In this document: positions 37,540 through 39,721 of the stretch, piece by piece
Position numbering within the stretch: position 1 is the stretch's first letter
How the letters are laid out: the number at the start of each line of letters is the position of its first letter
Assembly: GCA_963726255.1 (NCBI GenBank)
Contig: CAVSBL010000002.1
Span: 896,001 to 960,000 of the forward strand
DNA from: Candidatus Bathyarchaeota archaeon
GTDB taxonomy: Archaea > Thermoproteota > Bathyarchaeia > 40CM-2-53-6
DNA: 64,000 bases
Direction of reading: 5' to 3'
Translations under genes and position numbers: made by a program
The notes under the pieces: model-generated
Databases searched by the model: none
What the model was told of the DNA's origin: nothing
What the model saw: the letters and a program-made list of their open reading frames with translations, nothing else

Positions 37540-38037
37540 TCATTCGCGTAGTTCTTCAATTGTGTCACCTTGCGCGGCTTCGCCTTCCTCTTCTACGCTC
37601 GCGTACCAGCCCCTCCGCTGGTAGAGGGCTTTCACAATATCATTGTCCTTTCCAGCGTATGAAAGCACGTATAGGTTTGAGCACGGGTCGCAAGGCTTGG
37701 TGATCTTAATCACAGCTCGCCCAATTTTGTATCGCTTCCCCGGAGCGAAGCTGCTGTATGGGATTCGTGACGTTGTGAAATTTTCGCCAATATCTCCCGG
37801 TTTGATCGGCCAGCCTTCCCTGTTGAGTTCTTGAATTGTCTCGATGGGCATGAGAAGCACAGCCATCGCAGGGTCATCGTGCGCTTCCTCATGCCGCCAT
37901 CTGTTGAAGTCGCCTACAAGCCCATTCCGTTTCACTAACACACGATCAACCGGCCTCTTCGGGAGTCCTCTTTCACCATGCGCCTCCGCTTTGACATTGA
38001 TTTGGCGCACTTCACCTATGGCCCGTTCAGAATTCAT
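37540..38037 (-). CDS. MOSC domain protein
   Basis: GLPKRPV, GLVGD, GENFT, KPCDPC, RGWYA. Confidence 0.88.
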
Positions 38038-38620
38038 GATGCTCAGCCGAGCTTTTGCGTCTTGAGTGAGATTTAATGATTGACTGGGCGCTTACGCCGA
38101 CCGGCGACGCCCCCTCTAGGTTCAGAGCCTTCTCGTAAACTTCGTAGTCGGATTGCGAGAAGCAGACAAAGATAATCTTCTCGATGCTCTTCGTATTCTC
38201 GATGGCCTCGCTCACAGTTCGGGCGGCGATCGGTGCAGCTCTTTCGATCGGGAAGCCGTAGGCGCCTGTGCTAATAGAGGGGAAAGCGGTTGTTTTGACT
38301 CCATTATCTTCTGCCAAGTTCAATGAGTTTCTGTAGCAGTTTCGAAGGAGCTCGTCTTCACCTGCTTTTCCGCCTCGCCAAACCGGGCCCACCGTATGGA
38401 TCACGTGTTTTGCTTGTAGATGGTACGCTTTGGTGATTCTTGCTTCTCCGGTGGGGCAGCCGCCGATTCTGCGGCATTCCTCCAAGATTCCAGGGCCAGC
38501 GGCCCGGTGAATGGCACCGTCCACTCCACCACCACCTAGCAGAGTCGTGTTGGCAGCGTTCACAATTGCGCCAACCTTTTGCTTCGTAATATCGCCGAGC
38601 ACTAGCTCAATCTTCGCCAA
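38027..38620 (-). CDS. ymdB: macrodomain O-acetyl-ADP-ribose deacetylase
   Basis: [30 protein letters not shown]. Confidence 0.92.
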
Positions 38621-38667: not shown

Positions 38668-39174
38668 CTAGTCTAATCCGTAGGGCTTAAGGAACGTGAC
38701 CACACGCTCCTTTACGGCAAAGTACAAAATCGAACCGAGTATGCCTATGGCTATAATGCTCCCCAGCATGACTTCAGCCCAACCGGTTACGATGGGAATT
38801 GCAAAAAGGTAGCTAAGGTAACTGCCTACAATCAGGCTGACTACGAGGATCTCGACAGCTACCCCAACCATTCCCCATGATTTGGATTTGTGGCGTGCTA
38901 TACGCCATGCAATGAAGGTTGCCAGAAAGTTAGCGATCGCTCCGCCCACCATGTCAACGGGCCCCAAGCCTCCGAAAATATTGGCGACCAAGGCACCAAG
39001 CGACAAACCCACAACGGCTGGCCAACCAAAAAGCATGGCGAGCGGCAGAAGTGCGTCTGCTACTCTCACTTGGAATGGCAGGAAACTAATTTGTGCGAGA
39101 ACCACTACGCCCACTGCGTAAACGGCTGCGAACACCGCCGTCAAAGTGACAGATACCGATTTCTTGCTTTTCAC
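38668..39174 (-). CDS. queT: QueT-family transporter (COG4708)
   Basis: AVFAAVY...ISFLPFQVRVADAL...GLSLGALVANIFGGLGPVD. Confidence 0.85.
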   Translation of the reverse strand: MKSKKSVSVTLTAVFAAVYAVGVVVLAQISFLPFQVRVADALLPLAMLFGWPAVVGLSLGALVANIFGGLGPVDMVGGAIANFLATFIAWRIARHKSKSWGMVGVAVEILVVSLIVGSYLSYLFAIPIVTGWAEVMLGSIIAIGILGSILYFAVKERVVTFLKPYGLD

Positions 39175-39177
39175 TAC

Positions 39178-39245
39178 GTAACCTCCCTACTCCGGGGTTT
39201 TGTTCGGCGCAACGGGTGGGAGGCCCCACTCATGCGCCTCTATGG
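39178..39245 (-). promoter_or_regulatory. structured 5' leader of queT, candidate riboswitch
   Basis: P1 GGCGCA/UGCGCC, loop GGGG able to pair with CCCC after AACAAAA, anti-SD GGCCUCCC; TATA-like CTTAATT about 25 nt upstream. Confidence 0.6.
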
Positions 39246-39309
39246 CGCAAACAAGGTCAAATCAGAATTAAGTCTTTCCGACACTGCGGGAAGGTTAAGA
39301 AAAATGTAG

Positions 39310-39329
39310 GAAAGGCCGCTAGGCCTTTC
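39310..39329. terminator. GC hairpin downstream of the 49-aa ORF
   Basis: GAAAGGCC-GCTA-GGCCTTTC perfect stem. Confidence 0.5.
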
Positions 39330-39338
39330 AGAAGTCGT

Positions 39339-39488
39339 CTACGCGACGGCTGCGCGGTTCTGTAGTTTTTTGCTCGCTTCTAGCAGCTTCTCGCGTGTCT
39401 TCGAGTTGCCGAGGACACCGGCTACGACTGCGCCGATTGCGAAGGATGCGAGGGCTAGGGCGAAGCTTCGTCTGGATTCTGCACTCAT
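39339..39488 (-). CDS. 49-aa single-TM protein (YtxH-like layout)
   Basis: MSAESRRSFALALASFAIGAVVAGVLGNSKTREKLLEASKKLQNRAAVA; SD AGGAGGT. Confidence 0.7.
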   Translation of the reverse strand: MSAESRRSFALALASFAIGAVVAGVLGNSKTREKLLEASKKLQNRAAVA

Positions 39489-39721
39489 TTGTTTTCTTAC
39501 CTCCTGTGATTGCGATTCGAGAGTGCAGTTAGTGTTTGAGGTATATTAATGTACCATAAATGAAACATTCATATACCAACAACCATGTAAGGTCTGGTCA
39601 TGGCAACCCGCCCGGTTGGACATGGTGGAATAGTCATAAGCCCGAAATCCTCCTCAACCCCACCAACCCATTTCTCCATGCCCACCGTCGGGCCGCCAAT
39701 GCGCGAAGAGGTGAAATTCTC

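Follow-up and report, generated by a model that had tools for sequence, protein, structure and literature searches.

A conserved pseudoknot-forming leader of archaeal queT genes is a likely riboswitch for a 7-deazaguanine

Results

A structured leader precedes queT

The window analyzed here is a 64,000-nucleotide stretch of DNA from a Candidatus Bathyarchaeota archaeon (contig CAVSBL010000002.1, positions 896,001 to 960,000). We found that its queT gene is preceded by a structured RNA leader shared with many other archaea, and we consider it likely that this leader represents an undescribed archaeal riboswitch class, most likely sensing a free 7-deazaguanine, probably preQ0. An earlier note, made from the sequence alone, had pointed to a structured leader in front of queT as a candidate riboswitch. 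When we re-read the sequence, each of the elements it had listed was present on the minus strand in the order given, and together they occupied positions 39279-39172, directly 5' of queT (Table 1). The first base of P1 lies 24 nt past the TATA-like box. A check by coordinate indicated that all pairs of P1, P2 and P3 are Watson-Crick in the window, where P3 consists of 11 such pairs with two one-base bulges and has a calculated energy of -15.1 kcal/mol. The string AACAAAAC of the window was not conserved as a whole; its conserved part is only AAA followed by the C-rich CCCGG, and the AAA with two C's of the linker were invariant among the 30 relatives described below.

Table 1. Elements of the queT leader and their positions in the window
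Feature	Position	Strand	Basis or remark
BRE/TATA-like box (purine-rich, then T/A)	39279-39265; A/T-rich core 39278-39266	-	sequence
Putative start of transcription, a few nt before P1	39245-39240	-	TATA spacing
Whole conserved RNA motif	39243-39173	-	covariance-model match, 81.7 bits, E ~1e-23
P1 5' strand	39238-39233	-	pairs with 39211-39206; covaries
Junction UGAG, nearly invariant	39232-39229	-	UAGG, UGG or UGGG in a few lineages
P2 local hairpin, 5 bp, loop GCCU, holds the anti-SD	39229-39216	-	-7.8 kcal/mol
G-run and CCUCCC	39228-39218	-	sequence
Anti-SD CCUCCC	39223-39218	-	complementary to 39187-39182; co-varies with the SD
CCCGU	39216-39212	-	sequence
Invariant CCG, 5' half of the pseudoknot core	39215-39213	-	68/68 and 61/61 rows
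P1 3' strand	39211-39206	-	pairs with 39238-39233; covaries
A-rich linker L3 ending in AAA and the C-run	39205-39195 (linker with CCCC 39205-39194)	-	
Invariant CGG, 3' half of the pseudoknot core	39194-39192	-	68/68 and 60/61 rows
P3 3' strand, including the SD	39194-39182	-	pairs with 39223-39213; bulges 39191, 39188
SD GGGAGG	39187-39182	-	sequence
GTG start of queT	39174-39172	-	sequence
queT CDS	38668-39174	-	PF06177, 99.1 bits, E 3.7e-28

To follow the leader through related genomes we located QueT homologues by protein search, which found one in 43 of the 61 genomes. The same leader lay just 5' of the start codon in all 30 of the QueT loci that were fetched, down to a protein identity of ~40%, and a covariance model (R1) was built from these 30 leaders. 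In the 2.4-Mb genome that contains the window, R1 had a sole credible match at 81.7 bits, and the runner-up scored 13.2 bits. These two results, the 30 of 30 relatives and the single match of the model, bore out the leader as a conserved element. On comparative grounds the leader is a real, widespread, structured cis-element, far beyond chance. This verdict stands because of the comparison across relatives and not because of single-sequence folding, in which the leader gave an MFE of -31.3 kcal/mol (z = -0.93), 32 of 200 shuffles were as good and the pseudoknot was missed.

We also scanned one genome per prokaryote species with a loose three-block sequence pattern, and at least 120 stretches matched. 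Among the 120 matches listed, 40 scored 48.9-87.7 bits with R1 and all of these carried archaeal titles, while the other 80, mostly bacterial, scored 14.6 bits or less. None of the bacterial loci that we looked at carried the motif; in the collections searched it occurred in archaea only. It was present in 89 of 151 sampled genomes of the class to which the window belongs, and in 69 of the 94 that are of high quality. A sample of the phylum gave the motif in 28 of 151 genomes, 16 of them outside the class; 15 of these were credible, and one match outside the class, L207, at 22.5 bits, was set aside as noise. Several of the carriers outside the class are closed 1.5-Mb genomes. In a second, Asgard-labelled phylum (Promethearchaeota-titled record) we found the motif in 10 of 121 sampled genomes, in some cases on megabase contigs, and these carriers were concentrated in two small classes, in which every genome of the collection had it (7/7 and 3/3).

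The upstream regions had a common arrangement as well. Across 111 of them we detected an A-rich block at -40 to -35 and a T/A-rich block at -34 to -26, counted from the first P1 base, and the usual spacing between an archaeal TATA box and the start of transcription is ~26 nt. The box of the window presumably acts as a promoter. Since a promoter-like box stands at a fixed distance from P1 and the spacing is the usual one, the transcript is expected to begin a few nucleotides before P1, in which case the mRNA would carry the motif at its 5' end. A GCGCC at 39248-39244 (minus strand) is complementary to the 5' strand of P1. An anti-P1 hairpin formed by this element was considered and dropped, as the GCGCC was kept in only one or two close relatives, in one of them in a different form, and probably sits at or before the transcription start. 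Further upstream lies an ORF on the same strand (39339-39488) that encodes 49 aa with one hydrophobic stretch, has its own SD and returned no significant Pfam family. It ends in a terminator-like GC hairpin with a T-run (39329-39300, minus strand) just before the queT promoter box. Contigs from two soil metatranscriptome runs, ~97% identical to the window, covered 39266-39492 only, that is, the upstream ORF, and two wetland metatranscriptome runs contained no matching contigs. Downstream of queT, on the same strand and after short gaps, are genes for a Macro-domain protein (38027-38620) and a MOSC-domain protein (37540-38037).

Covariation supports three helices, two of which are mutually exclusive

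We examined the helices in three sequence sets: the relatives found by protein search (A1), 68 sequences of which 40 were found by pattern (A2), and the set found with the model (A3). Because the search pattern behind A2 fixed the three blocks GTGAG, CCGTT and AAAYCCCGG, the invariance of these blocks is best judged from A1 and A3. The P1 helix drawn in the earlier note proved correct, and it covaried. In 29 of 68 sequences of one alignment and 13 of 61 of the other, G-C replaced its innermost C-G pair, and its outer pair took five forms. Of 129 rows, 128 had G-U as the closing pair; only the window has A-U there, and its copy also carries one extra linker base. The P2 hairpin, which lies inside the P1 loop, varied in length and was absent from the minimal form L226; three of its pairs showed two-sided changes in both alignments. 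Taken together, P1, P2 and the core had 98.3% and 97.8% of cells paired with six double-change pairs, and none of 500 shuffles was as good, a significance that these shuffle controls overstate since the sequences are kin.

The third helix, P3, joins the CCG and anti-SD (39223-39213) to the stretch from CGG through the SD (39194-39182) and crosses P1 as an H-type pseudoknot, in which the linker L3 would cross P1. In two alignments that had not been fitted to P3, the combination of P1 and P3 had 95.3% and 95.9% of cells paired. Between 7 and 9 of its 17 pairs were changed on both sides, with 8 and 9 such pairs counted in the two alignments, and none of 500 shuffles reached the covariation score, a comparison that kinship likewise inflates. 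When the P3 partners were slid by 1-3 columns, only 37-63% of cells paired. RNAalifold, run on a plain MAFFT alignment of the protein-found relatives, predicted P3 de novo with 5 of its 10 pairs compensatory. Both strands of P3 were rewritten with compensation in L202/203, L205/206, L219, L224/225 and L226, the last being a 59-nt compact H-type knot with a P3 of eight contiguous base pairs. The anti-SD/SD duplex had an energy of -13.23 kcal/mol within a sequence as compared to -12.12 kcal/mol across sequences (0 of 500 permutations). By these alignments P3 is the best supported conserved helix of the leader.

P2 and P3 overlap at eight bases (39216-39223), and both of them covary. Since they share these eight bases, they cannot fully coexist. 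The energies calculated for the window were -20.0 kcal/mol for P1 with P2, -9.9 kcal/mol for P1 and -15.1 kcal/mol for P3, so that the P1+P2 and P1+P3 states are predicted to be similar in energy before any knot penalty. The long helix that the earlier note had described as a competitor was found to be real and able to bury the SD; it is, however, the core pseudoknot P3, and the competing element is P2, to which the note had given no name. The same note had drawn a pseudoknot between GGGG and CCCC. We found 89.4% of its cells paired, with two U-A exchanges in its favor but 12 mismatches at one pair, and since it clashes sterically with P3 the two cannot coexist.

The core of P3 behaved differently from its flanks. 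No covariation of the CCG:CGG pairing was observed in ~130 sequences; as these triplets never vary, they are consistent with pairing, without covariation behind it. Two weak-scoring variants of the QueT leader, L204:1501-1565(+) and L229:107-200(+), keep the CCG, but from the C-run to the SD they have a stretch of A's where the CGG would be, which hints that the CCG may do more than pair. Some 15 invariant unpaired bases flank the P1/P3 junction, namely UGAG, the U's beside CCG and P1, and AAA with the C's that follow. The motif has three general features of riboswitches: a covarying structure in a probable 5' leader, coherent genes in diverse lineages and mutually exclusive structures.

Genes downstream of the motif belong to one pathway

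To determine which genes follow the motif, the two model alignments were pooled, and their 131 rows reduced to 112 unique loci. QueT was recognized by Pfam at 97 of these and at four more (L061, L159, L186 and L196) once a mis-picked or broken frame was resolved, so that it lay downstream at 101 of the 112 loci in all. Three loci had a QueE-like radical-SAM protein, for which the top five NCBIfam matches were all QueE, below the curated cut-offs. Five had a 232-aa multi-pass membrane protein that matched neither Pfam nor NCBIfam, and one (L157) a fragmentary copy of the same membrane gene. Of the remaining two, one was cut by a contig end (L038) and one was a duplicate (L099, identical to L199). 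The genes next after the three QueE-like genes encode QueC, a glutamine-amidotransferase-QueC fusion or GTP cyclohydrolase I, and queT-queC operons were found at L196 and L219. One MAG, G316, carries three copies of the motif, in front of a queE-like gene with folE (L214), a queE-like gene with queC (L218) and queT with queC (L219). In the second phylum, too, each of the nine new loci had QueT downstream. A 7-deazaguanine riboswitch would be expected to show this pattern, in which the same RNA precedes transport genes as well as enzymes that act upstream of preQ0. The 7-deazaguanine-related context that had been proposed from the window was upheld by QueT itself, by the QueE-like genes with QueC or FolE and by the queT-queC operons.

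Some of these loci had features of their own. The G316 bin, of 1.6 Mb, holds two QueE-like and two QueC genes, which may be paralogues or may reflect a mixed bin. The 232-aa membrane protein is encoded at L055:5327-6022(-), L133:863-1549(-), L162:1568-2263(+), L174:1571-2272(+) and L177:1571-2272(+), in addition to the L157 fragment, and a small zinc-ribbon ORF follows it in several loci. We considered whether it was a diverged QueT and rejected this, as hhalign against QueT gave a probability of 17.9% that came from the first helix alone; the protein is a candidate for a new family of 7-deazaguanine transporters. At L186:1387-1520(-) and L159:1561-1700(+) the QueT frame lacks a canonical in-frame start codon and can be entered only from ACG or through a frameshift close to an A-run, which could be due to an assembly error, a pseudogene or unusual initiation.

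Discussion

Proposed mechanism and ligand

The comparisons suggest an H-type pseudoknot in which the A-rich linker would cross P1 and P3 would join the CCG and anti-SD to the CGG and SD. When the ligand is absent, P2 would form during transcription and keep the anti-SD, leaving the SD free so that QueT is made. A ligand bound at the P1/P3 junction would stabilize the CCG:CGG core, upon which P3 would displace P2, bury the SD and stop translation. The pocket is expected at this junction since the conserved unpaired bases and the G-U closing pair flank it. The OFF direction, with P3 as the bound state, follows from the logic of feedback repression and is to be taken as our inference. The earlier note had called the element a translational switch for a 7-deazaguanine. 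That call of function was upheld by the gene associations, the ability of the leader to bury the SD and the covariation, while the fold has been revised. In a few loci the arrangement differs. The QueT domain begins ~170 nt after the motif in L205/206, and ~45 codons after the motif or the first in-frame start in L202/203. P3 may miss the working ribosome site in these loci and act differently.

As for the ligand, genome G000 contains QueC, FolE and TGT. We found no QueF in it above the cut-off, the sole match being a GTP cyclohydrolase I T-fold below the cut-off, and only a weak radical-SAM match to QueE. The presence of QueC, FolE and TGT without a QueF above the cut-off fits preQ0 rather than preQ1. 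Archaea insert preQ0 directly into tRNA for archaeosine, according to the sources cited (PMC5372724; PMC11298593). We regard preQ0 as the likeliest ligand because of this direct use, because the regulated enzymes end at preQ0 and because no QueF of G000 passed the cut-off. A switch for another compound, such as preQ1, archaeosine base, CDG, queuine or guanine, is a rather unlikely alternative. In its favor, preQ0 and its close relatives are indistinguishable by gene context, and known preQ1 riboswitches are also described in front of queT (PMC5372724; PMC11625349). On the other hand, it has to contend with the direct use of preQ0 in archaea, with the outcome of the QueF search and with the regulated genes themselves, as FolE, the QueE-like protein and QueC all act before preQ0.

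The leader might instead be read by a protein or a tRNA, for example an archaeosine-pathway repressor or unmodified tRNA, or it might mask the SD independently of any ligand, as a thermometer would. Alternative helices can indeed mask an SD without any metabolite, and yet we judge this distinctly improbable. The same RNA stands before unrelated proteins of one pathway in two phyla, and an RNA that precedes a transporter, a radical-SAM enzyme and a membrane protein alike has the usual signature of a metabolite riboswitch. The ~15 invariant unpaired bases gathered at one junction would be needless for a simple thermometer, and no conserved neighboring regulator gene was noticed in the loci, which were inspected unsystematically. 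A further possibility, which concerns the architecture, goes back to the earlier note: the aptamer would consist of P1 and a GGG:CCC knot, and the long helix that buries the SD would be its ligand-free competitor. In agreement with this, both sequences in which the third C of the C-run has independently changed to A (L021 and L219) have a U at the partner column, a U that occurs in only ~5 of ~111 distinct sequences, and there are three U-A exchanges at the outer pair. That outer pair is nevertheless mismatched in 12 of 51 cells, many members offer two G's only, and L226 is without the hairpin G-run. The long helix, for its part, was predicted de novo and has been kept even in loci whose SD lies far from it. 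A ligand would moreover switch queT, queE and queC on, which is the opposite of feedback control. We find this architecture very doubtful. The least probable reading, and to us a highly improbable one, makes the leader a divergent member of preQ1-I, that is, an H-type knot with an A-rich L3 whose loop 1 has taken up a hairpin and whose second stem has lengthened. The order of elements and the class of gene, queT, are indeed the same (PMC11625349), and the minimal form L226 comes near to it as a compact 59-nt H-type knot. The Rfam 15 models nonetheless returned no match, the second stem has 8-11 bp as against 3-4 bp, a single variable base makes up the short loop and the junction bases differ. 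The known classes are, moreover, reported only from bacteria in the accounts cited (PMC11625349; PMC5473149).

We therefore return to the reading of the 5' untranslated leader, at 39243-39175 on the minus strand, as a probable riboswitch that would sense a free 7-deazaguanine by forming P3. We are modestly inclined to go further and regard it as a fourth distinct 7-deazaguanine riboswitch class. Such a class would be the first among riboswitches to be confined to archaea. It would sense preQ0 and not preQ1, and govern both salvage (QueT and the 232-aa family) and de novo synthesis (folE, queE and queC), and it would be widespread in Bathyarchaeia and other Thermoproteota and present in two classes of an Asgard-labelled phylum. 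Judged from sequence comparison, the leader probably represents a novel class of 7-deazaguanine riboswitch. If so, it would be a new RNA solution for recognizing 7-deazaguanines. It would also offer the first regulatory handle on the homeostasis of archaeosine precursors, extend metabolite control of SD-dependent translation to lineages that include Asgard archaea and point to a new candidate transporter family. With a length of 59-75 nt, it could further serve as a compact ligand-responsive part for archaeal genetic tools.

Comparison with known riboswitch classes

We searched the leader against Rfam 15 with cmscan. A 601-nt part of the window gave only a chance MS2 match at E<=10, and nine diverse loci gave nothing relevant at E<=1. 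The earlier note had suggested a relative of preQ1-I with a larger loop; this did not hold, as no Rfam preQ1 model matched even at E<=10. Since the model test failed and the size, helices and core differ, the motif is not a member of preQ1-I, preQ1-II or preQ1-III. The preQ1-I riboswitch (RF00522) has a minimal aptamer of ~34 nt, a second stem of 3-4 bp and a ligand-pairing C in loop 2. Our motif resembles it in the H-type topology deduced from the pairing, in the A-rich third loop, in having the 3' strand of a stem at or in the SD, in the control of queT and other queuosine-precursor genes and in the OFF logic proposed here. Unlike the ~34-nt preQ1-I, however, the motif is 59-75 nt long and archaeal, and its ligand is likely preQ0. 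Its second stem of 8-11 bp takes in the whole SD, its loop 2 consists of one base (U, C or A), its loop 1 contains a hairpin that can switch, and its conserved core is not that of preQ1-I.

In the literature searched, we found no description of an archaeal preQ0/preQ1 riboswitch; a passing mention elsewhere is possible. According to the review cited, bacteria are where the three preQ1 classes have been described (PMC11625349). A 2017 survey reports very few riboswitch classes from archaea, mainly TPP and fluoride (PMC5473149). These two are bacterial classes that archaea share, according to the same source (PMC5473149), whereas our motif occurred in archaea only in the collections searched. 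Among the preQ1 classes, preQ1-II (RF01054) is similar in that a complete SD lies in a pseudoknot helix beside the presumed pocket and in that translation of queT is controlled (PMC11625349). It is described as an HLout knot of four coexisting helices, P1-P4, whose 3' loop holds an additional hairpin, and as limited to Bacillota (PMC11625349). The extra hairpin of our motif, in contrast, lies 5' and competes with the knot, and the preQ1-II model did not match. The likeness to preQ1-III (RF02680) is that a hairpin loop presents the anti-SD, which pairs with an SD further downstream, and that the RNA precedes queT (PMC11625349). That class is given as ~100 nt long with five helices and a pocket far from the SD (PMC11625349). 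The SD helix of the archaeal motif, which no preQ1-III model matched, abuts the conserved junction instead.
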